Below, piece by piece: positions 1 through 25,587 of a stretch of 64,000 bases of DNA. The stretch lies in the NCBI GenBank assembly GCA_965248885.1, contig OZ252211.1, positions 661,179-725,178 on the forward strand, read 5' to 3'. The notes under the pieces were generated by a model that was given only the letters and a program-made list of their open reading frames with translations, did not search any database and was not told the origin of the DNA. This DNA comes from Sphingomonas sp. Lineage in GTDB: Bacteria; Pseudomonadota; Alphaproteobacteria; Sphingomonadales; Sphingomonadaceae. The number at the start of each line of letters is the position of its first letter. Position 1 is the first letter of the stretch. The position numbers and the translations under genes are program-made.

Positions 1-150
1 CTTTGCCATCTTGGCGACACCTGTGACATTGTTCACGAGCGTGCCCATTTCGATCGAGCGGACCGAGAAGGCGACGAAGGGCTGATTGTCGATAAGGGTG
101 AGCACCGCGTTCGACGGTGTCAGTTCGTTGTCATTCGTCATGCGAACTCC
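1..150 (-). CDS. isochorismatase-family (YcaC-like) hydrolase, N-terminal part; gene runs off the left window edge
   Basis: Reverse-strand ATG at 148-150. Translated N-terminus MTNDNELTPSNAVLTLIDNQPFVAFSVRSIEMGTLVNNVTGVAK resembles the isochorismatase/YcaC N-terminus (xLxLID.Q..F ... NNV). Partial, not in the ORF track. Confidence 0.45.
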
Positions 151-162
151 CCGGGATGATGG

Positions 163-540
163 TTATTGCTTGGGCCGCGCGTCGGTCACCTGAAACGCCA
201 GCGCCTTCCAGGCCTCACCGTCGCGCACCCAGACACGGGTGATGCGGGCTGGGCCTTGGAACGGCGTGCCGCGATAGGCTTCGTCGACGGTCCAGGTAGC
301 GGTGACCACGGCAGTGTCGCCGTGGATTCGTATCTCTTCATCCGAAGGTTCGACAGACGTCAGCTTGACCGTGCCGTCGCGCAGATTGTTGAGATAAGTC
401 TGGCGCGAAACCTTTTCGCCGACAGGGCTGGTGTAGATGAAATCGTCCGTCAGCAGCTCGGCGAAGCTGTCGGCGTCGTTGCGTTTGTAGATCTCCACCC
501 ACTGGCGTTCCAGGGCAATGATGTCGGCTTCGCTCGGCAT
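163..540 (-). CDS. SnoaL-like / NTF2-fold (DUF4440-type) protein
   Basis: C-terminal 125 aa of ORF 163..927 from an internal Met (MPSEADIIALERQWVEIYKRNDADSFAELLTDDF...). A GGAGAA RBS lies upstream of ATG 540. The N-terminal extension in the ORF track is Arg/Cys-rich out-of-frame junk. Confidence 0.6.
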   Translation of the reverse strand: MPSEADIIALERQWVEIYKRNDADSFAELLTDDFIYTSPVGEKVSRQTYLNNLRDGTVKLTSVEPSDEEIRIHGDTAVVTATWTVDEAYRGTPFQGPARITRVWVRDGEAWKALAFQVTDARPKQ

Positions 541-769
541 GATGTTCTCCTTTGGCGCGCAGGTTGCGGGTGTAACTCGCAGACCTGCGCATCGTTGCGG
601 CCCCGAATTGGTCAAGTGATGCCCACTTTCCGGAACGCTTTTCCCCCCGTGCTGGCGTCGAAGGCACAGAAAGGCCGGCGATAATCGCCAGCAAAAGCCG
701 CCTGCCGATCTCAATTGGTCTAAATGAGGTTGAAAGCGCAGCCGCGCGGCGCGGAGACGTCGGCAGCCG

Positions 770-1657
770 TCAGCACGAGAAATCGAGCTGGCTCGACAGA
801 TGATCGATGAACACCCGCACCTTGGGGCTGAGGCCGCGCCGGCTCGGATAAAGGGCATAAACTTCGGCCTCGCCGTGAAACCAGCCGGGCAGACAGACGC
901 GCAGCGCGCCTGATGCGATGTGATCACGGCACAGGCGGCGCGGCAGGCAGGTCAGACCCACGCCGTCGATCGCCGCCTGCAGCAAAATGCCCGCGTCGTT
1001 GGCGGCGATGCGCGGCACGAATTGCACCGTCACCTGCTCGTCGCCGCGCTTGAGCGTCCAGGATCGCGGATGAGCGATCACATGGTGAAACGCGAGCACC
1101 GTGTGCCGCACCAGGTCCCGGGGTTCCGACAAGTCGGGCGCGCTGTCCAGATAGGCCGGACTGGCGCACAGGACGAACGGGCTGACGCCCAGTCGGCGCC
1201 CGACCAGACTGCTGTTTTCGATCCGGCCGGCACGCAGCGCGACGTCGAAATCCTCGCCGATCAGGTCGACCTGCTTGACCGACATGTCGATCGATACCGA
1301 CAGGTCCGGATACTCCGCCATGAAGCTTGGCAGGAGCGGCGCGATCATGTTCATCGCAAAGCTGTACGGCGCGGTCACACGCAGCACGCCGCTCGCCACG
1401 GGAGCGGAAAGCGATTCCGAGATCGCGGCCTCTGCCTCGGCGATGCGCTGAAACTGCAGATGGACCAAGGCCCCCTCCTCGGTCAGCCCGAAGCTGCGGG
1501 TCGAGCGCTGCACCAGCCTCACACCCAGGCTTGCCTCCAGCGACGTGAGATGACGGCTGACCGTGGAGCGCGGCATGCCGAGTGCCCGCGCGGCAACCGA
1601 GACACCGCGCAGCTCGACGATCTTCAGGAAAACGCGGACGGCCTCAAACTCGCGCAT
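770..1657 (-). CDS. LysR-family transcriptional regulator
   Basis: N-terminal HTH (VFLKIVELRGVSVAARALGMPRSTVSRHLTSLE) plus LysR substrate-binding domain. Divergent from wrbA. Confidence 0.9.
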   Translation of the reverse strand: MREFEAVRVFLKIVELRGVSVAARALGMPRSTVSRHLTSLEASLGVRLVQRSTRSFGLTEEGALVHLQFQRIAEAEAAISESLSAPVASGVLRVTAPYSFAMNMIAPLLPSFMAEYPDLSVSIDMSVKQVDLIGEDFDVALRAGRIENSSLVGRRLGVSPFVLCASPAYLDSAPDLSEPRDLVRHTVLAFHHVIAHPRSWTLKRGDEQVTVQFVPRIAANDAGILLQAAIDGVGLTCLPRRLCRDHIASGALRVCLPGWFHGEAEVYALYPSRRGLSPKVRVFIDHLSSQLDFSC

Positions 1658-1831
1658 GGTTGAATTGTCCGATTCGTTGTCACCAGATGCTCATTTTTTG
1701 GACGCATCGAACTGCGCTGACAAGCATTACAGGCTAGCGTCGCGGCAGGGACGCAAACTCCGCTCTGCCTGACACGCCTTGAAATCAATCGATGCGAATC
1801 GCCCATTTGATCGAGAACCAGGAGAAAGACC

Positions 1832-2458
1832 TTGAGCACCAACGTCCTGATCGCCTTTTATTCCCGTTCCGGCTCAACCGAAGCACTCGCCCAAGCCATC
1901 GCCAAGGGTGCGCAAGCGAGCGGGGCCGAGGTCCGCCTGCGCCGCGCCCGCGAGCTGGTCGGCCCCGAAATCATGGCTAGGGCACCCGGCTGGGCCGAAG
2001 GTGCCGCGGCGATGAACGAACGCTACGAAGCGCCCACCGAAGCGGATGCCGAATGGGCCGATGCGATCGTGTTCGGCACGCCAACGCGGTTCGGAGCGGT
2101 CTGCGCAGAGTTGAAGGCCTATATCGACGGGCTGGGTGGTCTATGGTTCCAGGGCAAGCTGAACGGCAAGGCCGGTTCGGCGTTCACTTCGACCTCGAGC
2201 TTGCATGGCGGCAATGAATCGACGCTGTTGTCGTTGTACAATCCTATGGCGCATCTGGGGCTGATCATTGTCCCGCTGGGTTATGCCGACATGGCGCTGT
2301 ATCGCGCCGGAACCCCCTACGGCGCCTCTTCGGTTTCCGGCCAGCAGTCCGCCCCGCCGACCGACGATGATCTGGAAGTCGCACGCTTCCAAGGCCGCCG
2401 CGTCACGGAAGTTGCCGCGGCTCTCAAGAGCGCCGGCCTGACCGCCTCATCGCAGTAG
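1832..2458 (+). CDS. wrbA: NAD(P)H:quinone oxidoreductase, WrbA-type flavodoxin-like
   Basis: 208 aa with the typical WrbA start VLIAFYSRSGSTEALAQAIAKGA and ...YGTPTRFG... Divergently transcribed from a LysR gene. Confidence 0.9.
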   Translation: MSTNVLIAFYSRSGSTEALAQAIAKGAQASGAEVRLRRARELVGPEIMARAPGWAEGAAAMNERYEAPTEADAEWADAIVFGTPTRFGAVCAELKAYIDGLGGLWFQGKLNGKAGSAFTSTSSLHGGNESTLLSLYNPMAHLGLIIVPLGYADMALYRAGTPYGASSVSGQQSAPPTDDDLEVARFQGRRVTEVAAALKSAGLTASSQ

Positions 2459-2481
2459 CGGCCTGTACCGCGGTCGATCGC

Positions 2482-3360
2482 TTACGAAAACGCTGCGACG
2501 AGATAGTCGGTCAGCGCGCGGACCACGGTCGAGCGCTGTCGATGCGACGGATAGACCGCGTAGGCGGCACCGTCAGGCGGCGCATAGTGATCAAGCACGG
2601 TGGTCAGCGCGCCGCTGTCGAGGGCCGGCTGGACGATGAAGGTCGGCAGTTGCGCGATGCCGAGCCCGGCGACCGCCGCGGCAGCCAGCACGTCACCATT
2701 GTTGGCGCGGTAGACCCCGGCCACTGCCAGCGCCTGCGCCTTCCCTCCGGACGACAAGGTCCACGTCACGCCGCGACTGTGCCGGAACAACAGGCAGGCG
2801 TGATCCTTAAGTTCGGAAGGACTCATCGGCACGCCGCGCTGGCGGAGATATTCGGGGCTCGCGCAGATGACCAGCCGCAGCGCGATCAGCTTGCGCGCGA
2901 CCAGCGTGGAATCGGGGAGCACGCCGATCCGGATCGCCATGTCGAACCCCTCGGCGATGATGTCGACGGCGCGGTCGCTCAAATCGAGGTCGATCTCCAC
3001 GTCCGGATGGAGCCGCATGAAGTCGGCGAGCATCGGCGAGAGTCGCGCAACGCCGAACGACAGTGGCGCGGAAAGGCGCAGCGTCCCGCGCGGGACGACG
3101 ACGTGGCTCGACATGGCAAGCTCGGCCTCGGCGACGTCGGCGATGATGCGGCGGCCCCGTTCGGCGAAGTCGCGGCCCAGTTCGGTCGGCGACAGTCGGC
3201 GTGTAGTGCGCGTCAGCAGTTGAACGCCGAGCCGGTCCTCCAGCGCCATGATCCGGCGGCTGACGAGCTGCTTGGATAGCCGGAGCTGTCGCGCCGCGAG
3301 CGAGAAGCTGCCGCGGTCGATCACCTCGACCAGGATGCGCAAATCATCGAGCTGGTTCAT
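2482..3360 (-). CDS. LysR-family transcriptional regulator
   Basis: Start taken at MNQLDDLRILVEVIDRGSFSLAARQLRLSKQLVSRRI (HTH). The ORF-track upstream extension is unlikely. LysR C-terminal domain is present. Confidence 0.85.
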   Translation of the reverse strand: MNQLDDLRILVEVIDRGSFSLAARQLRLSKQLVSRRIMALEDRLGVQLLTRTTRRLSPTELGRDFAERGRRIIADVAEAELAMSSHVVVPRGTLRLSAPLSFGVARLSPMLADFMRLHPDVEIDLDLSDRAVDIIAEGFDMAIRIGVLPDSTLVARKLIALRLVICASPEYLRQRGVPMSPSELKDHACLLFRHSRGVTWTLSSGGKAQALAVAGVYRANNGDVLAAAAVAGLGIAQLPTFIVQPALDSGALTTVLDHYAPPDGAAYAVYPSHRQRSTVVRALTDYLVAAFS

Positions 3361-3485
3361 TGTCACATTATAGGCGACAGTCTTGCACGAAGAAAAGCTA
3401 TTATCTCGTTCGTGATTGACGTCTAGATTGATGGCGTTCGATCGGCGGGGCAACGGGCTCTTGCCGACACATCAGGAGAAAAATC

Positions 3486-3890
3486 ATGAGCATCGCTACC
3501 GCTACCCCCGTCTCGTCCCCCGCGCGTGGCCGCTGGGTCACTATTGGCCTGTGGACACTTCAAATTCTCGCCGCCGCCGCCTTCTTCGCCGCTGGAAGCT
3601 TCAAGCTTACGGGCGCGCCGATGATGGTGCAGATCTTCGATAATATCGGCGTTGGACAATGGTTCCGCATCGTCACCGGCGTCGTGGAAGTCAGCGGAGC
3701 AGCGCTCCTGCTGGTGCCGCGCCTCGCCGCTTTCGGCGGGCTGATGCTCGCGGTAACGATGGTCTTCGCAGCTCTGACGCACCTCTTCGTCATCGGTGGC
3801 AATCCGGCGCCGGCAATCGTGCTCTTCGCCATTACTGCGACGATCGCCTGGGCGCGCCGCGCCCAGCTCCGCCCGGTGCTGGGTCGCTAG
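3486..3890 (+). CDS. DoxX-family membrane protein
   Basis: 134 aa with four hydrophobic segments and DoxX-like composition. Divergent from the LysR at 2482-3360. Confidence 0.75.
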   Translation: MSIATATPVSSPARGRWVTIGLWTLQILAAAAFFAAGSFKLTGAPMMVQIFDNIGVGQWFRIVTGVVEVSGAALLLVPRLAAFGGLMLAVTMVFAALTHLFVIGGNPAPAIVLFAITATIAWARRAQLRPVLGR

Positions 3891-3928
3891 AAAGCCGTGC
3901 CCAACGAATGCGGTCGAGTGCGGGGCCG

Positions 3929-4833
3929 ATGAAACGGATTGCTCTTGACCTCGTGTCTGTTCGTCTGGCGTTGACAATTGCAGATCATCGGAGTGTTCGG
4001 CGCGCCGCAAAAGCCGTTAAAATGAGCGAGTCGTCCATCAGCCATCGCCTGAGATCGCTGGAAGACACGCTTGCCGTTTCGCTGTTCCATCGGTCGTCGG
4101 AAGGCGTTCAGCCAACCAATGCAGGGTTTGAATTTTTTGCTCGATCACGAGAAGCGCTTCGCATTCTCGACCTGGCAATGGCGCAAGCGGCGGCAAGTAG
4201 TCGTGGTACGGCCGGGCGGCCTAGGATCGGCCTCTACACCTCGCTATCGGGTGGAAAGCTGCTGGACGCGATCCGCGAATTTTTGCGTGAACATCCCGAC
4301 ATCGAGCTTGAGTTGGTCGAGGGCAGCCGCTCGCGGATGATCGAGGGCTTGAACGCGGGCACGATCGACGTGACGGTATTGATTGGTTCACCGGATCCCG
4401 TTCTCGGTGAGGCGCTCTCCCTTTGGAGCGAGCAGGCTTTCGCGATCGTGCCGCAGACGCACCCCATCGCGAGCGAGACCGAAATTGCTTGTTGGCAGAA
4501 GAGACGTTGCTGTTCTCCACGCGGGACGCCGGTCCGGAAGCTGAAAGCGCGCTAATCGCGCGGCTGGGCGGGCCGGGCCGATGGCCCAATCGCCGGCTGC
4601 ACAGCGTTAACCGCGATACGCTTCTGACGTTAGTCGCCATGGGCCGCAGCATCGCGATGATGATCGAGTCAGACCTTGGCCATCTCCCGACGGGTGCGGT
4701 AGCGGTGCCGCTCGTCCATGCCAATGGTCGGACAAGAGAATTGCTCACGGCTTACCGTGATCCCAGCAACGACAACCCGCCGCTGCGTCGGTTCTGGTCG
4801 ATGCTGATGAGGCGCTATTCGGAAGGCGGTTGA
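3929..4833 (+). pseudogene. LysR-family regulator disrupted by a 1-bp frameshift near 4486-4490
   Basis: The HTH plus N-terminal part of the effector domain is in frame 2 (ATG 3929 ... HPIASETEI). The C-terminal part (LLAEETLLFSTRDAG...RRFWSMLMRRY) continues in frame 1 (ORF 4423..4833). The junction implies loss of one T in attgc(t)ttg. Confidence 0.7.
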
Positions 4834-5060
4834 GCAATTGGCAGGGCGCGCCTCGCCTTGGCAAAAGCGCGGTCGGACGCGATGAAACGCACCAACATTG
4901 GCGCGATCAACTTGGCGGGCTCGATGCGCGTACCGGTTTCGGTCGCGAGCACCTCTGCATAGGCTACCAGATCGCGGTGGGTCGCGGCTGGAATCTCCAG
5001 GGTCATTCGTACGGGCCGTTCGTCCGCAATCGCGCCGAGTTTGAGTTTCGTCACGCTCAA
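4815..5060 (-). CDS. DUF2274-family protein (conjugative-element associated, usually follows trbI)
   Basis: 81 aa, MSVTKLKLGAIADERPVRMTLEIPAATHRDLVAYAEVL... Immediately downstream of trbI with a 4-bp overlap, as in Trb-type ICEs. Confidence 0.75.
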   Translation of the reverse strand: MSVTKLKLGAIADERPVRMTLEIPAATHRDLVAYAEVLATETGTRIEPAKLIAPMLVRFIASDRAFAKARRALPIAQPPSE

Positions 5061-6307
5061 CCCCGGTAGGGTTCGAGGATCAGGTCACGGGTGACAATCA
5101 CGCGTACCAGGAAGCCCGGCCGCACGGTGATGGTCGGCTGGATGTCGAGCGACCGGCCGACCACCTGGCGTCCGGTCTGACTGATGCTGTCGGACGCGCC
5201 CCGACGGAGTGCCTGAGACAGGTCGTTCTTGTCGGAGGATGTGCCCGCTTCCGACCCGACGCTAAGCAACGTCGAAAGCACCGCAGCCCGGAACAGCTGC
5301 CCCCAGTGGTTATCGACTCGATCGTGAAGCCCGGCATAGCCTTCCGGATCGGTGCCCGGTTGCCGCTTCAGGACAATCGAGCGCCCGTTGGGCAGGATCA
5401 GCCGCGTCCAGACCAGGAGCGCCCGGTTCTGACCGAACGAGATCTGCGCGTCGTACTGGCCGACCAGGCGCGACCCCTGCGGGATGAGCAACGTGCGACC
5501 TGTCGGGCCGTCATAGACGTTTTCGGTGACCTGCGCGGCGATCTGGCCGGGAAGATCGGATCGCAGGCCTGTGATCATCGCGGCGGCAATGACCGCGCCC
5601 GCTTGGAGCGTGTAGGGGCTGGCCGGCGCCGCGACGCGTTCGGTGCTGACGGTATTGCGATCGACCGCGCCGTTGAGGAAGGCGAGCTTACGATCGGAGC
5701 CGGTCGGTTGGGCCGGTTGAGACCCCTCGCTCACGGGCGTCCCCATCCCCGCAAGTCCGAGCGAGGGGGCTGCCGCCCCGGCGCCAGGTTGTGCGGTTCG
5801 CGCCTCGCTGGCGAACAGCCGACTGGTCCGCGCTGCGTCTAACTCCTGGGCGACGCGCTGGCGCCGCTGCTCGGCCTGCTGCCGGGCTGGATCTGGCGGC
5901 GAGCCCGCGCTAGTCGCCATCGGCGGCGGCGGCGTGCCGGCGGCTAGCATCGGGCGACCGAGATCGCCGGGGAGCGGCGGCCCGAGCTGCGGGACCGAGC
6001 GGGGCAGCCCGCCATAGTCGCCCGGAAGGCGTGCCAGGCCGTCGGCGGTCGTCCGGTGATCGGTGGCGTAGAGCTCTTCACTCGGCGCCTTGGGGTGCGA
6101 GCCCTGGAGCGCGAACACGAGCGCGCCACCCAAGGCGACCGCCGACACGCCCGCCAGCGTCGCGAGCGCGCGCCGCGACAGCCGCATGACGCGGGGCCGC
6201 TCCGGACGCAGCCGAAACGCCGCGGACCTGTCACGCGGCGGCTCGGGAAGGTCTGTTCGGGCCGAGGGCGCGTTCGCCTCGCGGTCTTCGACGCGGTCGT
6301 CGGTCAC
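5057..6307 (-). CDS. trbI: conjugal transfer protein TrbI (VirB10 family)
   Basis: 416 aa. Pro-rich N-terminal half with a TM segment. Conserved C-terminal VirB10 domain (...LVGQYDAQISFGQNRALLVWTRLILPNGRSIVL...RPGFLVRVIVTRDLILEPY). Confidence 0.9.
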   Translation of the reverse strand: MTDDRVEDREANAPSARTDLPEPPRDRSAAFRLRPERPRVMRLSRRALATLAGVSAVALGGALVFALQGSHPKAPSEELYATDHRTTADGLARLPGDYGGLPRSVPQLGPPLPGDLGRPMLAAGTPPPPMATSAGSPPDPARQQAEQRRQRVAQELDAARTSRLFASEARTAQPGAGAAAPSLGLAGMGTPVSEGSQPAQPTGSDRKLAFLNGAVDRNTVSTERVAAPASPYTLQAGAVIAAAMITGLRSDLPGQIAAQVTENVYDGPTGRTLLIPQGSRLVGQYDAQISFGQNRALLVWTRLILPNGRSIVLKRQPGTDPEGYAGLHDRVDNHWGQLFRAAVLSTLLSVGSEAGTSSDKNDLSQALRRGASDSISQTGRQVVGRSLDIQPTITVRPGFLVRVIVTRDLILEPYRG

Positions 6308-7563
6308 GACGCGGGCCCTCCGCTTTCGCTCCGGGCGCTCGTCGCCTGCGAGGCTCCCCCGGAGCCACGCATCCGCTGAAGCGGACCGCTCCTCACCCCA
6401 TCAGTCCGGACGATCCGCACGCGCTGCTGACGCGAGCCGCCCAAGCGCAACTCGGCGGCGGCGAACAGTCGGTCGACGATCATGTGGTGGCCGCGAACGC
6501 GGTAGTTGACGAGCTCGGCGCGACCCTCGGCACCAATGATCCAGAGCGGGGGCATCTCGCCCTGTCCTATCCCGGCCGGGAATTCGATGAACACCTGGCG
6601 ACCGTCGTCGAAGGCGCGGATCGGTCGCCAGGGCACGGCATCGCCTTCGATGCGGTAGCGGAACTGCAGGTTCTCGATCGCGGTGGCGCTGCTTTCGCCG
6701 ACGGGCTGGGCGGCTTCGGCCGCAGCGTTCTGGCGACGCAGCGCGATGAGCTGGTCGGCGGCGTAGGACCAGGAGACCGACGCCATGTAGGTGCGCTCGG
6801 CGGAGCGCATCTCGAGGTGATAGGTCCGGCGATCGGTGTTGATGACGAGGTTGGTGACGAGATCGGTGCGCGACGGCTTCACGAGGATGTGGACACGCCG
6901 CGTCGGGCCGGCGCCGCTTTCGGTATCGCCGATGATCCAGCGCACCGTGTCACCGGCCGCGACCGGGCCGGTGCCGACGAGCTGTTCGTCGGGCTCCAGC
7001 GCGATGTCGGTGACCTGGCCGGGCGCGGCGTAGAGTTGATAGAGCGCGCCGTCGGCGAAGGGATAGACCTGCACGGCGTTGACGTAGCCGCTGCGCGAGG
7101 GCTGGACCCGGGCGGCGCCGTTGGCGGCTTCGACCCGCGCCCGCGGATCGGCGGGTTCGCTCGCGGGCACAGGGATCGGGCCGGGCAGCGGCATCAGCTG
7201 ACCCGGCAGGGGCAGCGGCTGTGAGATGGTGACGATCTGCACCGGCCGCGGGAGTTCGGGGGCCAGGACGGCCGGCGTCAACGGCGCATCGTAGCTGATG
7301 GTCGGGGGCGAGTATTTGTGGGCGCAGGCGGCGCCCGCGACCGAGGCACCGCCGCTGGCGAGGCCAGCGACCGCGCCGCCGGCGAGAGATGCGCCACCGG
7401 TCGCGAGCGCAGCGCCCCCGGCCAGCACGCCGCCTGCGGCGAGACCGGTGCCGATCGCGGCACCCGCGCCGAGCTGTGGGCCACCGGAGACGATACCGTT
7501 GGCGATCCCGGGTCCGAAAATCCCAAGGCCGAGCAAGGTGAGCGAGGCGAGCATGATGCCCAT
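6304..7563 (-). pseudogene. trbG: TrbL Gly-rich C-terminal tail fused in frame to a TrbG (VirB9-like) body; trbF and the TrbG signal peptide are absent
   Basis: Frame of ORF 6304..7704 taken from the internal Met. MGIMLASLTLLGLGIFGPGIANGIV plus poly-Gly/Ala matches the TrbL/VirB6 tail. It then runs without a stop into TrbG-like sequence (GYVNAVQVYPFADGALYQLYAAPGQVTDIALEPDE ... PIRAFDDGRQVFIEFP). No TrbF-like sequence appears in any frame. Confidence 0.6.
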
Positions 7564-7564
7564 C

Positions 7565-8275
7565 GCGTCCCTCGATCGTCGGTGTGGCCGGAAAGCCGGT
7601 CTTGAACTCGTCGAACAGAGTCGAGCCGATGCCGATGATGACGGCGAGGACGAGCACCTTGATGCCTGACGACATGACGTTGCCGAGCACGCGCTCGGCG
7701 GCAAACGCGGTCTTGTTGAACAGGCCGAACGGGATGAGCACGAAGCCCGCGAGCGTCGTCAGCTTGAACTCGATGAGCGTGACGAAGAGCTGGATCGCGA
7801 GGATGAAGAACGACAGCAGCACGATCACCCAGGCGAACAGCAGCACCGCGATCTGGATGAAGTTCTCGAAGAACGACACGTAGCCCACCAGGCCGGAGAT
7901 CGAATCGAGGATCGGCTTGCCCGCGTCGAGGCCGACCTGCGCGACGCGGCCGGGCCGCAGGAAATCGGCCGTCGCGAGCGAGGTTCCCGAGGCCTTCAGC
8001 CCGAGGTGCGCGAAGCTCTCGAACACGATGCGGGCAAGGTTGCCCCAATTGTTGATGATGAAGGCGAAGGCGCCGACGAACAGCACTTTCTTGACGAGGC
8101 GTGCCGGCACGTTCTCGTCGGGCGCCCACGCCCAGAACAGCGCGGCGAGCACGAGATCGATGACGATCAACGTCGCCGCCAGCCACTTCACCTCGCCCTG
8201 CAGCAGGCCAAACCCGCTGTCGATGTAGCGGGTGAAGACCTCGAGGAAGCGATCGACGACGCCGGTCCCGCCCAT
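7565..8275 (-). pseudogene. trbL: TrbL/VirB6 N-terminal 236 aa; reading frame breaks at ~7566 (extra G in gaGGGac)
   Basis: MGGTGVVDRFLEVFTRYIDSGFGLLQGEVKWLAATL... with multiple TM helices ending ...FKTGFPATPTIEG, then junk in this frame. The expected continuation DAMGIML is in the +1 frame (see 6304-7563). Confidence 0.75.
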
Positions 8276-8277
8276 GG

Positions 8278-8613
8278 TCAGCGCCCCTCTGTCGGCATGG
8301 AGACGACGGCGGGATTGGGCGCGACGGGGCGGCGATCGGGTGCGAGGAACCGACGACGGTTCTCTGCCCATGCCGCTAGGCATGCGGGGTCGTGCGCGCC
8401 CGCCTCGCCGAGACCCTGGCACCGCGCGAATTCTGCCTGTAGCGGGTCCGTCGCAACGATGTTCTCGGTGGCCTGACGTTCGGCCGACGACGTCTGATCG
8501 GTCGTCGCCATCCAGGCGGCGGCGCCGGCGAGGATGATGCCGATCAGGATCAGCACGATCAGCTTCTTGGCGGCCGGACCTTCCATCGTGCGAAATCCAA
8601 GCAAACGCCGCAC
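8278..8613 (-). CDS. TrbK-alt-like small entry-exclusion lipoprotein of Trb-type ICEs
   Basis: 111 aa with a TM/signal segment (KKLIVLILIGIILAGAAAWMA) and a conserved-looking C-terminus (DPLQAEFARCQGLGEAGAHDPACLAAWAENRRRF). Sits between the trbJ fragment and trbL as in ICE trb operons. Confidence 0.55.
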   Translation of the reverse strand: MRRLLGFRTMEGPAAKKLIVLILIGIILAGAAAWMATTDQTSSAERQATENIVATDPLQAEFARCQGLGEAGAHDPACLAAWAENRRRFLAPDRRPVAPNPAVVSMPTEGR

Positions 8614-8627
8614 CGTCGCCTCCGTCA

Positions 8628-9062
8628 GTTGTGGAACATCGTGACGGTCGTCGGCCGGTAGCCGGTCCCCGGCGTCAGGAAGCGACGGAGCTGTTCGCGC
8701 GCCTGGTCCTGCGCGGCGGCACGTTGAGCCGCTTCGAGGCTCTGCGCTCGGCCCTGCGCGGCGACCGCCGCAGTCAGGTCGGCGAGTTGCTGTGCCTGGA
8801 GCGCGAGCAACTGGTTGCCGGCTTGTGCGGCCTGCAGCGCACCAGTCGCGCCTTGGCTCGAGGAGACGAGCGCGGACATCTGGCTGCGGTTGGTGTCGAG
8901 GTTGCCGACGACGGTCGCCTGCGCGTCCAGATCACCGACAACAGCGGGCGCGGCGTACGCGACGAAGGCAAGGTCGTCTCGGCGATCGACATGAACATCC
9001 AGCGGCTCGACCGCGAGGAGCGCCGGCTGGGGCTGCGCGGCATTGGTGAGGATTTGCGCATT
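8628..9062 (-). pseudogene. trbJ: TrbJ C-terminal fragment (~145 aa); N-terminal ~100 aa and the upstream trbB-E genes are absent
   Basis: Minus-strand translation ...NAQILTNAAQPQPALLAVEPLDVHVDRRDDLAFVAYAAPAVVGDLDAQATVVGNLDTNRSQMSALVSSSQGATGALQAAQAGNQLLALQAQQLADL...RRFLTPGTGYRPTTVTMFHN is a TrbJ-like coiled-coil tail. Homology stops at ~9060, where the upstream frame becomes Arg-rich junk. Confidence 0.55.
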
Positions 9063-9512
9063 CCGCGTTCGACGACCTTTTCGTTTTCCGGCTTCGGACC
9101 GACGGCGACGCCGCCACCGGGCCTGCCGGTTCTCACGACCGATGCGGTGCTCGCTTTCGGCCGCTCGCGCACCCGCACGGACGGCGGCGATGGTGACGTG
9201 CGGCTGCTAATCGGGGATGTTGGCGGCAAAATCGATGAAGAGCTTTCGCAAATGGTGTCGCGCCGCCATTTCGAAGTTTACGTCGAGAACGATCGACTGA
9301 TGCTGCGTGTCAACGGCTCCAACGGCCTCAGGATCAACGGCAAGGCCCACGGCGTCGACACGGTCGTTCGACTCAGCGACGGCGACATCATCGCTCCGGT
9401 CGTCAAAGCGCCCGACGCCCTGACGCTGGCCGTCCGCTTTGCGCGCGAGCGCGATCAGGTGTGCGCGATCACCATAGCGCAATCGCCGGAATTCAAGGGG
9501 GCGGCGCTATGA
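8991..9512 (+). CDS. FHA-domain protein; start uncertain (ATG 8991 or TTG 9054)
   Basis: C-terminal FHA fold: AVLAFGRSRTRTDGGDGDVRLLIGDVGGKIDEELSQMVSRRHFEVYVENDRLMLRVNGSNGLRINGKAHGVDTVVRLSDGDII. Stop overlaps the kinase ATG (ATGA at 9509-9512). Confidence 0.6.
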   Translation: MNIQRLDREERRLGLRGIGEDLRIPRSTTFSFSGFGPTATPPPGLPVLTTDAVLAFGRSRTRTDGGDGDVRLLIGDVGGKIDEELSQMVSRRHFEVYVENDRLMLRVNGSNGLRINGKAHGVDTVVRLSDGDIIAPVVKAPDALTLAVRFARERDQVCAITIAQSPEFKGAAL

Positions 9513-11070
9513 TCAAATGCCTGCAATGTGGCGCCGATAATCCCGCCGGTAACACGTTTTGCCAGAATTGCGGAAAGCCCATTTTGGCTGTGGGCAGCGG
9601 CGGTGCGGCGCTGCAGACGCTAAGTGGATTGCGGACGATCGGCGGCGGCGAGACGCTGCACCACGATGCCTATCCGAAGGGCGACGTCGCAATCCTCGAG
9701 CCGGGCGCGGTATTTGCCGGCCGCTACACGATCGAATCGCGTATCGGAATCGGCGGGATGGGCGTTGTTTATCGTGCCAAGGACAAGATCGGCGACCGGA
9801 TCGTGGCGCTGAAGCTCATTCGCTCGGACCGGCTTTCCGGCGAAGACGCCGTCAGCCGGCTCAGCGCTGAAGGTGTTCTCACTCAGGATATTCGCCACAA
9901 GAACATCGTCAACGTTTACCATGTCGATCAATTCGAAGGTCAGCCATTCCTGTCGATGGAGTTCGTCGAAGGCGTGTCGCTGCGCGAATGGATCCGCAAG
10001 CAGAAGCGCGCGGGGACCGAGGTGGGCCTCATGGTGGCCGCGCGGATCGTGAACGAGGTGCTCGCTGGCCTTCAGGTCGCGCATGAGATGGGCATCGTCC
10101 ACCGTGATCTTAAACCCGAGAACATCATGCTGACGGCGGAACCGAGCGCCGACGCTGCGGCGCTCAAGATCCTTGATTTCGGCATCGCGCGCGTCGAGGC
10201 GCGGCAGGTCGTCAGTGGCACCGGCCGCGAAGGCACCGTCGAATATATGGCGCCTGAGCAAATTACCGACGCCGACAGTGCCGGCCCCGAGGCCGATTTC
10301 TACTCGCTTTCGATCATCTTTTACGAGCTGCTCGTCGGGGTGCTGCCGAAGGGGGGCTGGCAACCCCGTCGAGCGGCCGGTCCGACGTGCCGACGGGAAT
10401 CGATTCACTGATCCAGTCGGGGCTCCAGAACCGGACGGCAAGCCGTCCGCAGAGCGTCGCCGAATATCGCCAGAAACTCAACGCTGCGATCGGCAGTGCG
10501 CCGATCGGCGGAAAAAAGCGCACGGATGTCGATCGGTTCGTCGGCGGCGACGATCCGCCGAAGAAGCACAACTGGTGGATAATCGGCGGCGGTATCTTTG
10601 CTGGGTTCCTCGTGCTCGGCGTGATCGGCAACATGATCGACCAGACCGAGCCTGGGATTCTCAAAAACGGCAACGTTATAACTTCGACCGGGGGCCGTGA
10701 GGACGATCCGCCGCCGCCACCGCCGCCACCGCTGCCCAGCTATTCGCAGCTGAGCGGCCAGTGGCTCGACGGAAACGGCGCTGGCATCGCGGCCGACGTC
10801 AACGCCAACGGGACATTTTCCGGGACCGGTCGCGCAACCGATGGCACGCCGTTCACAATTCAGGGCGCTTTTTCGGGAACCGTCGCGAATTATACCGTCA
10901 CCAACACCGCCGGCGCGCTCGGCGGTCGGCTGGCGTGGGACGGCCGCAATTGCCACCTCGACTTCCGGACGCTGTATCCCAACGGCGCGATCGCCGTGCA
11001 AGGGCAGTTCCACGTCAATCACGCACCGGGAGAACCCTGTCCGGCGGGATGGGGTGCAAACGGGCCATGA
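9509..11070 (+). pseudogene. membrane Ser/Thr protein kinase (N-terminal zinc-ribbon, Hanks kinase, TM helix, extracytoplasmic domain) with a frameshift at ~10351-10368
   Basis: N-terminal zinc ribbon MIKCLQCGADNPAGNTFCQNCGKP. Kinase motifs VALKLI, HRDLKPENIML, DFGIA and APE, ending ...FYELLVGVLPKGGW in frame 2 (ORF 9461..10411). Continuation ...SDVPTGIDSLIQSGLQNRTASRPQSVAEYRQKL, TM helix WWIIGGGIFAGFLVLGVIG and a ~150-aa extracytoplasmic domain run in frame 1 (ORF 10387..11070). The break lies in the ggggggctggcaaccccg run. Confidence 0.75.
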
Positions 11071-11086
11071 CTTCAGGAGACCGAGC

Positions 11087-12028
11087 ATGACAGACAGTTG
11101 GAACGGCCATCCGCTCAACGGCTGCCTTTTCGAGGCAACACCGTCGCCTGCGCCGACGCTGGGGCTCGCGACCGGTCAGGGCGCGCTGCCGCGGCGGGTC
11201 GACCTGCGCGCTCACTGCACGCCGGTCGAGAATCAGGAAAAAACCAACAGCTGCGTTGCGAACGCTATCGTCGGCGCGCTCGAGCTGCACCAGCGCAAGG
11301 CGGGATTGCCGGTTACTGATCTATCGCGGCTGTTCCTATACTACAACGCGCGCAGCCTTTCGAAGACCGAGGGGCGGGATTGCGGCACTCACATCCATCA
11401 CGGAATGGCCGCCGTGCTCGCCTATGGCGTCTGCGAGGAACGGATGTGGCCGTTTGAAACCGCGATGGTTACGGCCCCGCCGACCGAGGCCTGTTTCAAG
11501 AATGCGACCTCCTATGAGGCGGTGCAGTTCGCGCGCACGCCGGCGGGACAGCCGGCGATGGCGGCATTGGCACAGGGGCTTCCCGTCGCGTTCGGCATCG
11601 TTTTGCCTGGCGAATGCTATACCGTTGCAGCCAAGACCGGGACGGTTCCCAATCCGGACACCATTCAGGTGCAGAGCGCGCCGAGCGGGCACGCCATGCT
11701 GATCGTCGGCTACGACATAGACGAGAAAGTCTATTTCGTCCGCAACAGTTGGGGCGCTGGCTATGGCCAGAACGGTTATATCAACGTGCCCTTCGACGTG
11801 ATGGAGCGCCACGCGCGTCCCGATCAGTTCTGGACGATCGGGGCGATCGAACAATCACCGGCGCTCAGCATTTTCGGACCGTCGGTGAAAGAGACGGTCG
11901 AGAATGCTACCGAAGGCAAACGCCCGCCGACCAAGCTCGACCTGTTGCGCGCCGAGTTGAAATCGAGCCTCGAATCGCGCCTCGGAAGTGCGCGGCAAGG
12001 CTTTGCAAGTCGGCTTCGCGGGAATTAG
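11087..12028 (+). CDS. papain-like cysteine peptidase (MEROPS C1A-like), no signal peptide
   Basis: 313 aa from ATG 11087 with an AGGAGA RBS. Catalytic Cys context VDLRAHCTPVENQEKTNSCVANAIVGALE and His/Asn context HAMLIVGYD...YFVRNSWGAGYGQNGYINVPFD. Follows the kinase after a 17-bp spacer. Confidence 0.8.
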   Translation: MTDSWNGHPLNGCLFEATPSPAPTLGLATGQGALPRRVDLRAHCTPVENQEKTNSCVANAIVGALELHQRKAGLPVTDLSRLFLYYNARSLSKTEGRDCGTHIHHGMAAVLAYGVCEERMWPFETAMVTAPPTEACFKNATSYEAVQFARTPAGQPAMAALAQGLPVAFGIVLPGECYTVAAKTGTVPNPDTIQVQSAPSGHAMLIVGYDIDEKVYFVRNSWGAGYGQNGYINVPFDVMERHARPDQFWTIGAIEQSPALSIFGPSVKETVENATEGKRPPTKLDLLRAELKSSLESRLGSARQGFASRLRGN

Positions 12029-12418
12029 ATCGTGAGTTGCCATGCTTATGATTGAGGGTGCCCGAGGCGGGACCGTGATCTACTGGAATGTCCAACGCGC
12101 GTCGCGTTCGATGGCTGATCTTCGCTTCGGTGCCCTGCGGCATCCTCTTTTCGTACTTGGCTTTCAACCTGCAGCTGATTTAGGGATTTTCGCCGGCCGA
12201 CGGCGGGGACTTGCGGCCGTTGAACGAACGATGGGCATGGGCCGCACTGGTCATGACGGTCGCTGTGGCGCCATTGACTGGAATGCGGTTTTTTCGTCGG
12301 GATCTGTCTCGTCCGGGTCGAACAATGCGGGTCGTTGCTGATCCTATCGACTGTCCGGGCCTCCGGCGCCGAGGTCGCCGTGTCGAAGGCGAACAGGCAA
12401 CGCGCTCAAGATGAACTG

Positions 12419-12673
12419 ATGCGACAGGGGCGCGCACCGGAACCAATGCAGCTCGCGCGAAACGCAGCGATGCGGACAGTCGCGAGCAGCTTTGCGACGC
12501 CGCTTCGTGCCGCAGGCATTGACGCCAGCGTTGTCGTCCGATTCATCGACCCTTCGGGACGGGAAATCATGTCCTTCCTCGACCGATCGCGCCGCATCGA
12601 GGACGTGTTGCGCAGCCGCCGCGCAGGCGCCCAGAAAATTAGGGCGTCGCGCGACGAGCCTACGGCACCCTAG
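12419..12673 (+). CDS. hypothetical small protein (weak call)
   Basis: 85 aa from the internal ATG of ORF 12335..12673 with unbiased composition (AGIDASVVVRFIDPSGREIMSFLDRSRRIEDVL). No recognisable family. Confidence 0.3.
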   Translation: MRQGRAPEPMQLARNAAMRTVASSFATPLRAAGIDASVVVRFIDPSGREIMSFLDRSRRIEDVLRSRRAGAQKIRASRDEPTAP

Positions 12674-12942
12674 TTCTGCATGATGGCCGCGCGAGCGTGC
12701 GGTTGCTTCTCTTCGGTTGTCGCTTTGCGAAGCTGGCCGGCGACCGCGCACTTCTCTCATCGGTTTTGTCGGAGCAAATGCAAAACGCGTTAAGCGGCGG
12801 CGCGATCCTCCGCCCGCATGACCGCGATCAGCGTAGATGGCGACCCCGACATGCCCGAAGAGCCGATACACGGTCCCACGACTATGTCGACGCCCCCTGT
12901 CGCACTGGGATGACTTCGCGCCCTGTTCGCCTGGCGAGGGTA

Positions 12943-13353
12943 TCACGCCCCGCTCGGGACAACTGGGATCATCCAGCCCTGCGGAAGACGGTCAAGATCG
13001 GTGGCGGCGATTACCCGCGATTCCGCGTCGAGGAATACCACCATGTACCGCGGAGGATCGGGAAATCCGAACCACAGCCGCTCGCCCATCAACCAAGTCT
13101 CACCCTCCGAAGTCGCGATCGCGTCCAACGCGTCGGCAAACATCTCCACCACCCCTCCGAAGCGAGCCCGCTCCTCTGAGTCGGGATGCCTCCAGCTGAC
13201 CATCCGGCGCTCACGAGTGGCGATGCGGAGCCGGTCGACGACAGTCTCGGCTAGGTTGCGCGGCAGAGCGAAGCCGAGCGCCGCGCCACGCGAGCGCAGC
13301 GCGCGATGCTCCGCCGTCTCGTCCGCACCCCAGAACCAGCGCCACCAGCCCAT
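12943..13353 (-). CDS. hypothetical protein
   Basis: 136-aa ORF with balanced composition (…GGVVEMFADALDAIATSEGETWLMGERLWFGFPDPPRYMVVFLDAESRVIAATDLDRLPQGWMIPV). No family recognised. Confidence 0.4.
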   Translation of the reverse strand: MGWWRWFWGADETAEHRALRSRGAALGFALPRNLAETVVDRLRIATRERRMVSWRHPDSEERARFGGVVEMFADALDAIATSEGETWLMGERLWFGFPDPPRYMVVFLDAESRVIAATDLDRLPQGWMIPVVPSGA

Positions 13354-13576
13354 CAGCTCGGCATATCCCCTCGCACCGCCCGCCGCGAGCGAGAGTTACT
13401 CATCTGGCAACCGCGTCGATCGCAATCCACAGCGCCGTGCCGGTTGGGCTGCCGATCAATGCGCTGAATGCGATATTACTATCAGAATGAATGAACGACT
13501 GCTTTGGAACAGCGGAAGCATTCAAAGAGACGGCCGACTTTGGGTCACCGTATATTTCGCGCCGATGGCGCGAGAG

Positions 13577-14263
13577 CTACCCGTGCGACGGGCTGGGATG
13601 CGGACCGTGACCTCCCGTCTTCATCCAAACTCGCGCGCCTTGTCGACCAGCCACGGCGCTTAAGTGACCGTCGTTAGGCAAGCGCAGCCAGCTCTGGACC
13701 CGCATGATTTCGCCAAAGGCGGCGCAGGTGCCTTCAAGCACCAACAGTTCGGCACCATCCGGCGTACTCAGCTCAATTGTCGTATCTGGCGCCCATACCT
13801 CGATCCGCACGCTTTCGCACCCATCCTCGAACAGCGGCACGACCGCGACTCCTGGTCGATCGAGTGCATCGCGCAGCCTGAGGGCGTGCGTGTTGATCGT
13901 CAGCGCAGCCCTGTCGCACGGATCGAACTGCCACAGCTTGACGAAAATCACACAACCGGAAGCAGAGCCAGGTCGGTGCCGCGACGTCGGCGGATTACGA
14001 ACGTAGGTACCGGCTGGATAGTCGCCGTGTTCGTCCTGGAACACACCGTCGAGAACGAAGAACTCTTCGCCGCCGCCGTGAACGTGCTCCTCGAATAGGC
14101 TGCCGGGCGCGTAGCGGACGATGGAGGTGGCGCGTGCCACCTCCCCGCCTATCCGATCGAGCATGCGCCGGTCGACACCGGGCATGGGCGATGGTGTCCA
14201 GGCGATCCTGTCGCCATGGAGCAGAACTCGTCGCGAAAAGTCGCTGTTCAATTCCATCGTCAT
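13577..14263 (-). CDS. ChrR-like bicupin domain protein
   Basis: Start taken at MTMELNSDF... Has the HGGGEEFFVLDGVF cupin motif and a second cupin half. The ORF-track N-terminal extension is discarded. Confidence 0.65.
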   Translation of the reverse strand: MTMELNSDFSRRVLLHGDRIAWTPSPMPGVDRRMLDRIGGEVARATSIVRYAPGSLFEEHVHGGGEEFFVLDGVFQDEHGDYPAGTYVRNPPTSRHRPGSASGCVIFVKLWQFDPCDRAALTINTHALRLRDALDRPGVAVVPLFEDGCESVRIEVWAPDTTIELSTPDGAELLVLEGTCAAFGEIMRVQSWLRLPNDGHLSAVAGRQGARVWMKTGGHGPHPSPSHG

Positions 14264-14291
14264 CGCTTCTCGCCGCGAGATGTCGTGCCGC

Positions 14292-14672
14292 TCACGTGAA
14301 CGCGACGACAGCGACCTTATTGCCGGTCGGGTCACGCAGATAAGCCATAACCGTGTTTGGCAGACCACCGGCACCTGGCGCGCCGTTCACATCGCTGCCG
14401 CCGGCAGCGAGACCGGCTCGATACCAGGCTTCGGCGGTCGCCGTTGAGTTTGCTTTGAACATGATCGTGCCGCCATTGGCATGACATGCAGCCCCCTTAT
14501 CCTGCGGCTTCGTTACGAGAAACAGTCCGTCCTTAGGGTCGCCGTACATTAAGGCTGCAGGGTCATCGCGGAACTGACCCTTGCTTTCGATCCCAAGCGT
14601 TCCGAACGTTGCGTCGTAGAAAGTCTTAGAGGCTTCGAGATCGTTCGAACCTACCATCACGTGAAAATACAT
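14292..14672 (-). CDS. VOC (glyoxalase/bleomycin-resistance fold) family protein
   Basis: 126 aa, MYFHVMVGSNDLEASKTFYDATFGTLG... Typical small VOC protein. Confidence 0.7.
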   Translation of the reverse strand: MYFHVMVGSNDLEASKTFYDATFGTLGIESKGQFRDDPAALMYGDPKDGLFLVTKPQDKGAACHANGGTIMFKANSTATAEAWYRAGLAAGGSDVNGAPGAGGLPNTVMAYLRDPTGNKVAVVAFT

Positions 14673-14779
14673 TTGCTGCCTTCCTGTCGATCGGTCTGAA
14701 TCTTTTAACCGCTCGGCTACCTACTAGTAGGGCGTTTGAGTGGCAAGTGCTATGTTGACGCTTACTCGCCACCTACTAC

Positions 14780-15352
14780 ATGGTAGGGATGGACACGAAG
14801 ACCGCATTGCTTATTGCCGCGGAGGACGCGGTCCGCGCGCGTGGCTACAACGGTTTCAGCTATGCCGATCTCGCCGCAGCCGTCGGCATCCGGAAGGCGA
14901 GTATTCACCATCACTATCCGACAAAGGCGGATCTCGCACTGGCGCTAATCGAGCGATACGCGGCACGCTTCTTCGCGACACTCGACCAGATCTCCGGGTC
15001 ACATTCGACAGGTGGAGCACGCTTACGTGCCTGTATCGGCGCGTATCGCGGAGTGCTCGAAGGGGGTGATAAGACCTGCTTATGCGTAGCGCTGTGCATC
15101 GGTCGCGACGGATTGAGCAAGGCGGTGCTGGCCGAGTTGGACACTTTTCACGCGACAATCACGGCCTGGCTTGCGGACTGCTTTTCAATCGCGAAGAAGG
15201 ACGGGACCATCGCGGACGTCGGCGACCGTGAGGCTGAAGCGCACGCCTGCCTCGCGCAGATGGAAGGCGCTCAGTTGATCGCGCGGGCAGCCAAGGACGC
15301 GCGGCGCTTCGACATGGCGACGGCACAAGTGCTCGGGCGGATACGAGGCTAA
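14780..15352 (+). CDS. TetR/AcrR-family transcriptional regulator
   Basis: N-terminal HTH ALLIAAEDAVRARGYNGFSYADLAAAVGIRKASIHHHYPTKADL. Divergent from the VOC/cupin genes. Confidence 0.85.
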   Translation: MVGMDTKTALLIAAEDAVRARGYNGFSYADLAAAVGIRKASIHHHYPTKADLALALIERYAARFFATLDQISGSHSTGGARLRACIGAYRGVLEGGDKTCLCVALCIGRDGLSKAVLAELDTFHATITAWLADCFSIAKKDGTIADVGDREAEAHACLAQMEGAQLIARAAKDARRFDMATAQVLGRIRG

Positions 15353-15635
15353 CGACCGCCTAAGTCGAATGGCCATTCGTTGCTGCCCCGCAAAGCAGGG
15401 GGGTAGACAACGACCACAACGCCACACGATTTTGTCCTCGTAGGTGGAGCTGACGTTAAATCGAAGAACTACGGGTCCGCGGTCAATGTCGGCAGATTGC
15501 CTTGTCCACCCTGGAGTGAGAGACTCTAACCCGACAGCCCGAATGAGCGCGGTGAGGATCAGAACGCCCACTGACGTGACCCCCGTTTTTTCCTCCGGAT
15601 GGAACTAGAGTCTGGCCCGAAGAAGGGACGGACAG

Positions 15636-15903
15636 ATGAAGCGGAAGCAGTTTTGCCGAAGAGCATATCATCGGCATCCTGAAGGAAGCCGAAGCAGGCG
15701 CGGTGGTGACGGAGCTGTGCCGGCGGCACGGCATGTCGAGCGCGACCTATTACGCATGGAAGGCCAAGTTCGGCGGCCTGGAGGTGTCTGATGCGAAGCG
15801 GCTGCGAGCGCTCGAGGAGGAGAACGCTCGGCTCAAGCGGCTGCTGGCGGATACGATGCTCGACAACGCAGGCCTGAAGGACCTGCTATCAAAAAAATGG
15901 TAG
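15636..15903 (+). pseudogene. IS3 transposase OrfA (HTH), with an N-terminal frameshift (extra T at 15651-15654)
   Basis: ATG 15636 reads MKRKQF then goes out of frame. Downstream frame gives ...[80 protein letters not shown], the canonical IS3 OrfA. Observed TTTTGCC where TTTGCC (F-A) is expected. Confidence 0.7.
15891..15897 (+). promoter_or_regulatory. A AAA AAA slippery heptamer for programmed -1 ribosomal frameshifting (orfA to orfB)
   Basis: Sequence ctatcaAAAAAAAtggtag at the orfA/orfB overlap, the standard IS3-family frameshift signal. Confidence 0.5.
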
Positions 15904-16802: not shown

Positions 16803-17020
16803 AAGACGGGGGTCACGTCACCACCGCCAAGGCACTCGCAAGTGCGACGCGCAGATGATTGAACGACTGAATCCAGGGCAATTCTTGACCGTGTTGAGCG
16901 TATGGTTGTGGGTCCAGTTGCACATAGCATTTAATCGCCTGCCCCAATCTGTAACACGCCACTCGCATGGCTCGATCTGCCTTCACTGCTAATTAATGGG
17001 CAAGCCCTCTGAGTTCTTGT

Positions 17021-17767: not shown

Positions 17768-17778
17768 GCCGCCTCCCG

Positions 17779-21525: not shown

Positions 21526-21538
21526 GCGCGCACCCGCG

Positions 21539-25584: not shown

Positions 25585-25587
25585 GGC

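Follow-up and report, generated by a model that had tools for sequence, protein, structure and literature searches.

A truncated and internally deleted trb operon in a Sphingomonas chromosome, the probable remnant of an integrative and conjugative element

Surviving trb genes and the lesions between them

We analyzed a 64,000-nucleotide stretch of a Sphingomonas sp. genome (GenBank assembly GCA_965248885.1, contig OZ252211.1, positions 661,179 to 725,178 of the forward strand), referred to here as the window, in which an initial annotation had noticed a degraded Trb-type conjugative type IV secretion system (T4SS). All six-frame searches and open reading frame (ORF) scans cover this window, and the six-frame profile searches were run with filters off. 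The minus strand of positions 4815–8922 carries the distal half of a trb operon of the Ti/Tn4371/ICEMlSym type, with a GC content of 0.68–0.71 compared to 0.62–0.65 in its neighbours. Six minus-strand ORFs (4815–8879) match trb-operon families in the order trbJ fragment, trbK-alt, frameshifted trbL, a deletion, trbG without its 5’ end, trbI and DUF2274 (Table 1). Domain and profile matches recovered every trb gene that had been listed, on the strand and in the distal-half order first described.

A scan of GTDB genomes with the TrbI of the window gave 68% as the best amino acid identity among the matches listed, and these genomes were used for comparison only and were not regarded as close relatives. 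Closer relatives were found through the members of the 90%-identity cluster of 16 proteins into which this TrbI falls. The relatives compared were the loci L081, L082, L083, L143, L149, L150, L151 and L153, of which the metagenomic L149 and L150 both come from sample ERZ26165376. The window is collinear with L081, L149, L151 and L143 at 88–91% nucleotide identity over trbJ–trbL, and with L149 and L150 at 85–93% over trbG–DUF2274, the deleted segment aside.

The genes trbK-alt, trbI and DUF2274 are uninterrupted. TrbK-alt scored above the curated cut-offs over its full length (TIGR04360, 66 bits versus 33; PF20084, 82.5 versus 23.9) and is 85% identical in amino acids to its L081 counterpart over residues 1–111. 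TrbI (VirB10) is complete and 94% identical to that of L150. The likely start of DUF2274 is a GTG at 5054, giving the same 79 amino acids as in the relatives; this protein is 82% identical to its L150 counterpart. We found no insertion or deletion in trbG (as far as it survives), trbI or DUF2274 compared to L150.

The TrbJ (VirB5) protein is represented by residues 148–245 only. An 84-amino-acid ORF (8625–8879) corresponds to positions 163–246 of 246 in one TrbJ profile, and in a second profile the trbJ stump covers positions 138–237 of 237. The missing residues 1–147 of 245 make up 60% of the protein, well beyond the N-terminal third that had been supposed lost. Homology to Trb DNA stops at 8922 and homology to an unrelated metagenome contig, L157, starts at 8926, 65 bp upstream of the start codon of an FHA gene at 8991, which pins the joint to 8923–8925. 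The block first annotated at 4815–9062 kept its start and its genes but not its right end, as the DNA from 8926 onward belongs to an FHA/kinase module.

No trbB, trbC, trbD or trbE had been seen ahead of trbJ in the initial annotation, and none was found in any frame of the 64 kb. The profiles for TrbB, TrbC, TrbD and TrbE were built from 18–66 relatives, that for TrbF from 79 sequences and that for TraG from three, and their best E values in the six-frame searches were 0.024–3. The ATPases TrbE and TrbB (64 sequences each) gave best E values of 3 and 2.7, respectively, and no tblastn match; the pilin TrbC (VirB2) gave 0.52. The value of 0.024 came from TrbD (VirB3), over a 28-residue stretch at 102–239 that is not credible. 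TraG was absent from the window by tblastn and by a profile built from only three sequences.

A further lesion lies between trbL (VirB6) and trbG (VirB9). A 466-amino-acid ORF (6304–7704) matches TrbL profile positions 236–322 with residues 45–128 and TrbG/CagX (VirB9) with residues 210–434, in keeping with the in-frame fusion of a trbL tail to trbG that had been described. In a four-way DNA alignment the window tracks trbL to ...TCGGTCGCGGGCGC and then trbG ...GCGCCCACAAATAC, with an 8-bp microhomology at the joint. The joint bases match trbG at codon ~17 and seven of the eight are present on the trbL side at codon ~315; the trbL side reads CGCAGCCT in L081 and the trbG side reads CGCCGCCT in L083. 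The two sites lie at 8958 and 10048 in L081, that is 1090 bp apart, indicating that ~1.09 kb was lost, and since trbL and trbG are in different frames in L081 this loss brought trbG into the frame of trbL. The aligning of the window with intact relatives, which had been proposed for locating the deletion endpoints, placed the joint at 7326–7333 and, together with L157, that at 8923–8925.

The deleted segment comprised TrbL residues ~317–432, all 227 codons of trbF and the first ~16 codons of trbG. TrbG homologues begin MRLVQLGSALAATTALAAC, and in an alignment with eight TrbG proteins the window has ...ASVAGAAC there: their N-terminal MRLVQLGSALAATTALA is replaced by TrbL sequence and the invariant Cys comes next. 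The lost MRLVQLGSALAATTALA is probably a lipoprotein-type signal peptide. The mature TrbG is complete (tblastn covers TrbG residues 12–327), so that this protein lacks only its export signal, as had been suggested. The reported absence of TrbF was borne out in all six frames of the window, where the 79-sequence profile gave a best E value of 1.3 and tblastn gave no match with the TrbF of L081, an intact locus that is ~90% identical to the window in nucleotides over trbJ–trbL. As a separate observation, TrbG exists in two natural lengths: the window, L149, L150 and P0001/P0006 (358 amino acids) share 26 extra residues, VRSGPLQRMRGSGGASQATSARSESG, directly ahead of the C-terminal PAS, and TrbG of L081, L151 and L153 lacks it (332 amino acids). 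The site is at the 3’ end of trbG (window 6304–6400, minus strand).

We queried 5.8 billion proteins with the fusion ORF, and the best 120 listed matches were all stand-alone TrbG proteins of 318–358 amino acids that covered 65–75% of the query, the top ones with 94–95% identity. The trbF gene sits between trbL and trbG in 76 of the 76 related genome loci having both (one was flagged merely for a reverse-strand copy), and L149, L150, L151, L153 and L083, all the close relatives showing this region, have trbF as a gene of its own and a TrbG that retains the signal peptide. The junction peptide SVAGAACAHKY, searched as a codon-degenerate motif in 241 million metagenome records, gave no match. 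The control motif from trbL gave 65 matches in the same collection, only three of them in trbL genes, which makes it a weak positive control; the three are relatives with full-length trbL, and the two whose contigs reach further run into trbF. By these comparisons the trbL/trbG fusion is not a conserved natural architecture. Together with the lack of a trbF in any frame of the window, this means that neither of the two findings named in advance as refuting the initial annotation was made.

The exactly in-frame deletion and the complete mature TrbG would fit a functional trbL/trbG gene of a streamlined secretion system, possibly read by programmed frameshifting. We find this hardly credible, as the fusion is unconserved by each of the above comparisons, the closest relatives all have separate intact genes, and the partner ATPases and pilin are absent from the window. 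We know of no precedent for a periplasmic or outer-membrane VirB9 placed behind a polytopic VirB6 without a signal peptide of its own.

The remaining lesion is within trbL itself. The 490-amino-acid ORF at 6950–8422 matches TrbL profile positions 1–236 with its residues 50–284 (TrbL codons 1–235, 95% amino acid identity to L081), and the coding sequence then resumes in another frame for codons 236 to ~316. This out-of-frame piece, DAMGIML... followed by a Gly/Ala-rich stretch, is 96% identical in amino acids to L081 residues 235–317, and 96–99% identical across the relatives. The change of frame follows codon 235, where the window reads GAGGGAC and five close relatives read GAGGAC or GAAGAC. 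The site is ACGATCGAGGGACGC in the window, ACGATCGAGGACGC in L081, L082, L143 and L149, and ACAATCGAAGACGC in L151; with more context the same sequences read ACGATCGAGGGACGCGATGGG, ACGATCGAGGACGCGATGGG and ACAATCGAAGACGCGATGGG, respectively. The extra G, to which the frame change had been attributed, is thus confined to the window among the six sequences. Programmed frameshifting in trbL was considered and rejected, since the extra G occurs in no relative and there is no conserved shift site. With this insertion and the loss of codons ~317–432, no intact TrbL reading frame is left.

The extra G might be an error of sequencing or assembly, in which case the gene would be an in-frame fusion of trbL (codons 1 to ~316) with trbG (codon ~17 to the end), ~657 codons in length. 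Such an error would leave this picture, with one base added to a short run of G (GG to GGG) and the codons after it still 96–99% identical in amino acids to the relatives. However, a run of three bases is a weak homopolymer context. A neighbouring LysR gene carries a 7-nucleotide deletion, which is no homopolymer slip and argues against a pure homopolymer artefact, and the long core genes at 25–64 kb are unbroken, indicating that the assembly is not generally prone to insertions and deletions. We regard an error as unlikely, and even if it were real trbF, trbB–trbE, most of trbJ, the C-terminus of TrbL and the signal peptide of TrbG would still be lost and the verdict on the operon would be the same. 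At least three independent lesions destroyed the trb operon.

Table 1. Features of the window, with the trb remnant first
Feature	Position	Strand	Evidence or remark
DUF2274 gene, intact	4815–5060	−	PF10038, E 5.6e-31
trbI (VirB10 homologue), intact, 416 amino acids	5057–6307	−	PF03743 full length, E 2.9e-65
trbG (VirB9 homologue), lipobox Cys to stop	6304–7325	−	TIGR02775, E 3.9e-80
Deletion joint, 8-bp microhomology CGCCGCCT	7326–7333	−	Four-way DNA alignment
trbL codons 236 to ~316, in a frame other than that of the trbL start	7326–7569	−	TrbL profile 236–322
GGG run with one extra G (+1 insertion)	7569–7571	−	Direct reading; pairwise alignment; five relatives
trbL (VirB6 homologue) codons 1–235, ATG at 8275	7571–8275	−	PRK13875 positions 1–236, E 3.6e-130
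trbK-alt (putative entry exclusion), intact, 111 amino acids	8278–8613	−	TIGR04360, E 3e-18; PF20084, E 2.6e-23
trbJ (VirB5 homologue) 3’ fragment, codons 148–245 and stop	8625–8922	−	99% amino acid identity to L081 TrbJ
Novel joint, trbJ codon ~147 / FHA-kinase-peptidase module	8923–8925		Homology limits on both sides
SnoaL/DUF4440-like gene (cargo)	Within 1–3890, block running off the window start		L150 collinearity
LysR (cargo)	770–1657	−	L150 gene order
WrbA-type flavodoxin (cargo)	1832–2458	+	L150 gene order
LysR (cargo)	2482–3453	−	L150 gene order
DoxX (cargo)	3486–3890	+	L150 gene order
LysR pseudogene, convergent with DUF2274	4022–4830	+	7-nucleotide deletion near 4492
FHA protein, 173 amino acids	8991–9512	+	Module gene
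Zinc-ribbon Ser/Thr kinase	9461–10411	+	Module gene
227-amino-acid protein, Pro-rich linker, no Pfam match	10387–11070	+	Module gene
Papain-family C1 peptidase	~11100–12028	+	Module gene
IS3-family element, apparently complete, 1249 bp	15572–16820		19-bp terminal inverted repeats TGACGTGACCCCCGTTTTT / AAAGACGGGGGTCACGTCA
IS3 orfB	15897–16802		rve domains
XRE-type helix-turn-helix regulator, upstream of the sortase system	17021–17806	Opposite strand	
714-amino-acid VIT and vWA ‘marine proteobacterial sortase target protein’, with sortase	17936–20691	+	
Sortase gene	20038–20691		Overlaps the sortase-target gene
GST-like tail	21200–21500	−	
AcrB-family fragment	21419–22519	+	Profile positions 711–1019 of 1021 only
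Acyl-CoA dehydrogenase N-terminal fragment	24001–24742	−	Reading frame broken
6S RNA (SsrS)	25571–25727	−	RF00013, 48.1 bits versus gathering cut-off of 46.4

Recency of the damage and origin of the locus

We compared pieces of the window with L081, L143, L149 and L150 by Nei-Gojobori counts. The ratio of non-synonymous to synonymous substitution rates (dN/dS) was 0.01–0.26 for every piece, with 0.12 for DUF2274. The out-of-frame trbL piece gave 0.011–0.033 (0.033 against L081, with 25.5 synonymous and 2.5 non-synonymous differences) and the orphan trbJ stump gave 0.017–0.028 (17 synonymous versus 1 non-synonymous), so that pieces that cannot be correctly translated had ratios as low as those of the intact genes. 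Under neutral drift, non-synonymous changes should outnumber synonymous ones. A low ratio even in the out-of-frame piece indicates that nearly all of the divergence predates inactivation and that the damage is recent. Recent damage also fits the lack of insertions and deletions in trbG, trbI and DUF2274 compared to L150, and the patches of 98–100% nucleotide identity to this relative, where trbF and a full trbG are still present. Most likely, trbK-alt, trbI and DUF2274 are still intact only because of this recency.

The same intact genes raise the possibility of a partial domestication, in which trbK-alt, perhaps together with trbI and DUF2274, would have been kept for excluding related conjugative elements. 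The full length of trbK-alt is compatible with this, and TrbK-type proteins act in the recipient, where no transfer apparatus is needed; a cloned trbK alone cut plasmid entry 200–400-fold (PMC8923210). Mesorhizobium integrative and conjugative elements (ICEs) vary in the presence of trbK, and consequences for encounters between ICEs have been proposed (PMC8627217). However, dN/dS is equally low in pieces that are not correctly translatable, which points to recency and not to selection on the remnant. The operon has lost its upstream half together with the promoter region, and a scan of 4700–9300 revealed no sigma-70-like promoter. In the cited plasmid, exclusion also required trbK in the donor (PMC8923210), and for the family at hand this function is only putative. 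We consider domestication very unlikely. There is a very slight chance that trbK-alt, alone or along with trbI and DUF2274, is transcribed from a promoter of foreign origin and now works as a stand-alone entry-exclusion module. If so, part of the dead element would have been domesticated and would protect this sphingomonad against renewed invasion by a very common family of related ICEs.

The relatives show what the operon probably looked like before the damage. L081 and L082, on contigs of 98–117 kb, read relaxase, traG, an orf, trbB, trbC, trbD, trbE, trbJ, trbK, trbL, trbF, trbG, trbI and DUF2274, followed by a divergent LysR gene. L149, on a 1.35-Mb contig, reads traG, an orf, trbBCDEJ, trbK, trbLFGI, DUF2274 and LysR. 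L150 starts within trbL and continues with trbF, trbG, trbI, DUF2274, LysR, DoxX, LysR, flavodoxin, LysR and SnoaL; L151 and L153 show trbF, trbG, trbI and DUF2274. Intact relatives with a relaxase, traG and the full operon on large contigs make an ICE origin and a loss of self-transfer the natural reading, as the initial annotation had proposed. The locus is very probably a dead remnant of a Trb mating-pair-formation operon (MPF_T, a P-type T4SS related to the Trb system of Ti plasmids) from an ICE of the Tn4371/ICEMlSymR7A kind, an ancestry to which the gene order, the absence of trbH and the close similarity to intact operons all point.

We weighed the possibility that the fragment came from an integrated conjugative plasmid instead of an ICE. 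The same trb type is common on alphaproteobacterial plasmids, and 11 of the 14 matches in PLSDB were on plasmids typed as conjugative. These matches reach only 75–79% nucleotide identity and cover trbL only, whereas the closest relatives (88–100% in patches) are on large contigs with traG and chromosomal-type cargo, with a relaxase in L081/L082, and the window, with its block of core genes from ~25 kb, is chromosomal. A plasmid origin is distinctly improbable on these grounds.

The Trb system requires TrbB, TrbC, TrbD, TrbE, TrbJ, TrbL, TrbF, TrbG and TrbI. Since TrbI is the only intact one among the structural parts, the locus should be unable to support conjugation: without both ATPases, the pilin, VirB3, VirB8, an intact VirB5 and VirB6, and the export of VirB9, a conjugation channel could hardly be built. 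A plasmid of related gene layout no longer transferred once trbJ or trbL had been deleted in frame (PMC8923210).

We propose that the chromosome acquired an integrated ICE belonging to the L149/L150 lineage, which was afterwards damaged by several events, named here in no implied order. A rearrangement or deletion would have removed everything upstream of trbJ codon 148, including the operon promoter region, traG and trbBCDE, and put the trbJ stump next to the unrelated FHA/Ser-Thr-kinase/papain-like-peptidase module. Short GC-rich microhomologies would have mediated a ~1.09-kb deletion that took the 3’ quarter of trbL, trbF and the signal peptide of trbG, creating the in-frame trbL-trbG joint. 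Upstream of this joint, trbL may have gained a single G, and the 7-nucleotide deletion would separately have broken the adjacent LysR cargo regulator.

Several points weigh against a dead ICE remnant. The extra G might be a base-calling error. The term ICE rests on the relatives, as the window itself shows no integrase, relaxase or attachment (att) site; a second intact trb cluster, an integrase or relaxase, or complementation in trans could lie outside the window. The operon is probably not expressed, but the promoter scan that gave no sites in 4700–9300 covers the sigma-70 consensus only. Finally, the uninterrupted trbI, mature trbG, trbK-alt and DUF2274 with their low dN/dS would, taken alone, also fit continued selection.

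Cargo and chromosomal setting

A single alignment of 7355 bp (92.7% nucleotide identity) joins window positions 7339 to 1 with L150 1097–8442. Because this alignment runs in one piece down to position 1, the genes at 1–4830 are cargo of the same element, which extends past the window start, and the ICE-derived DNA is 1–8922. Patches of 99–100% identity occur within the cargo at 1–3890. The LysR gene next to DUF2274 was recovered in two frames by tblastn, with a 7-nucleotide gap compared to L150, whose copy reads in one frame. Identity to L150 is mosaic, at 98–100% over 6090–6840 and 2099–4097, with blocks of 80–90% around these patches, and at 74–90% over 4348–6089 and 355–849. This pattern indicates recent patches of recombination between the element and its metagenomic relative; recombination between related ICEs typically produces such mosaics (PMC8627217).

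The remnant had been taken to explain the mosaic accessory block at ~3.4–24.8 kb. This holds for the part up to 8922, which is ICE-derived, but not for 8923–24800. No homology to any ICE locus was found over 8923–64000 except for one IS3 match, and 8.9–24.8 kb is a separate patchwork unrelated to these elements. PLSDB searches with 8.9–25 kb matched only IS3 copies and the sortase-target gene. The Pfam scans of ~50 window ORFs revealed no recombinase or relaxase domain except the rve transposase of the IS3 element, the att-target search found no tRNA gene, and there were no convincing long direct repeats of the att kind in 1–27 kb.

The four-gene FHA/kinase/peptidase module next to the trbJ stump spans 8926–12028 on the plus strand, possibly to ~12600, and recurs in the same order at 71–75% nucleotide identity on L157. 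We do not assign it to defence, as PADLOC gave only generic kinase-domain matches (PD-T4-6, mad6). The first ~120 codons of a public 293-amino-acid FHA call (P0259; ORF 8631–9512, plus strand) are antisense to the trbJ stump, and a 173-amino-acid homologue (P0260, 81% identity) places the true FHA start at the ATG at 8991. The IS3 element is 84–89% identical to copies on Polymorphobacter, Sphingomonas and Sphingobium plasmids. Beyond the features in Table 1, the 8.9–24.8 kb region carries genes for a ChrR-type cupin, a glyoxalase, a TetR regulator, DUF2461 and YdeI, and the whole low-GC block at 9–25 kb resembles a dump of incomplete accessory genes.

Core chromosomal genes, among them those for 5-formyl-tetrahydrofolate cyclo-ligase, 6S RNA, ZapA, transketolase, GAPDH, PGK, MetH, MTHFR and TrpFBA, follow from ~25 kb. 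The 6S RNA gene is located between a ZapA-like ORF and the cyclo-ligase gene, and it is here that the conserved core chromosome begins. The transketolase is ~82% identical to Sphingomonas proteins, which identifies the host as a sphingomonad.

Comparison with known elements

L149 and L150 share a TrbI of at least 90% amino acid identity with the window, and L150 has the same cargo order (DUF2274, LysR, DoxX, LysR, WrbA, LysR, SnoaL). Unlike the window, both keep trbF (227 amino acids) and the full 358-amino-acid TrbG, L149 has traG-trbBCDE and full-length trbJ and trbL, and the LysR gene of L150 is unbroken. The lesions are younger than nearly all of the divergence from the relatives. The breakpoints, placed within 3–8 bp, make the locus a small but clear illustration of microhomology-mediated deletion and of the speed with which an ICE backbone can be dismantled.

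For annotation, the chromosome would best be described as carrying a non-transmissible ICE stump and no active transfer system. The locus also holds traps for gene calling: the ORFs of 466 (‘TrbG’) and 490 (‘TrbL’) amino acids are chimeras or run out of frame, and the 293-amino-acid FHA call is antisense to the trbJ stump. The locus opens no new question.

In Tn4371-like ICEs, trbBCDEJLFGI comes after traG; the functions of the genes and the existence of truncated copies have been summarised (PMC2789088). Compared to the Tn4371/ICEMlSymR7A-type module, the surviving genes of the window have the same order (trbJ-trbK-trbL-[trbF]-trbG-trbI) and orientation and likewise no trbH, and trbI is followed by DUF2274 and a divergent LysR, an arrangement also present in L081, L149 and L151. 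The window differs in having the distal half only, with no traG, relaxase or integrase, and in its trbK-alt, as Tn4371 elements are described without trbK. Partial Tn4371-like copies, along with possible truncated elements that lack trbI, have been reported (PMC2789088), and Mesorhizobium ICEs also contain gene remnants and pseudogenes (PMC8627217). The trb locus of the window is a new, neatly resolved case of this known kind, the truncated ICE copies and pseudogenised ICE genes of those reports (PMC2789088, PMC8627217); to the same phenomenon it adds breakpoints placed within a few bases and the unusual in-frame joint of a truncated VirB6 to a truncated VirB9.

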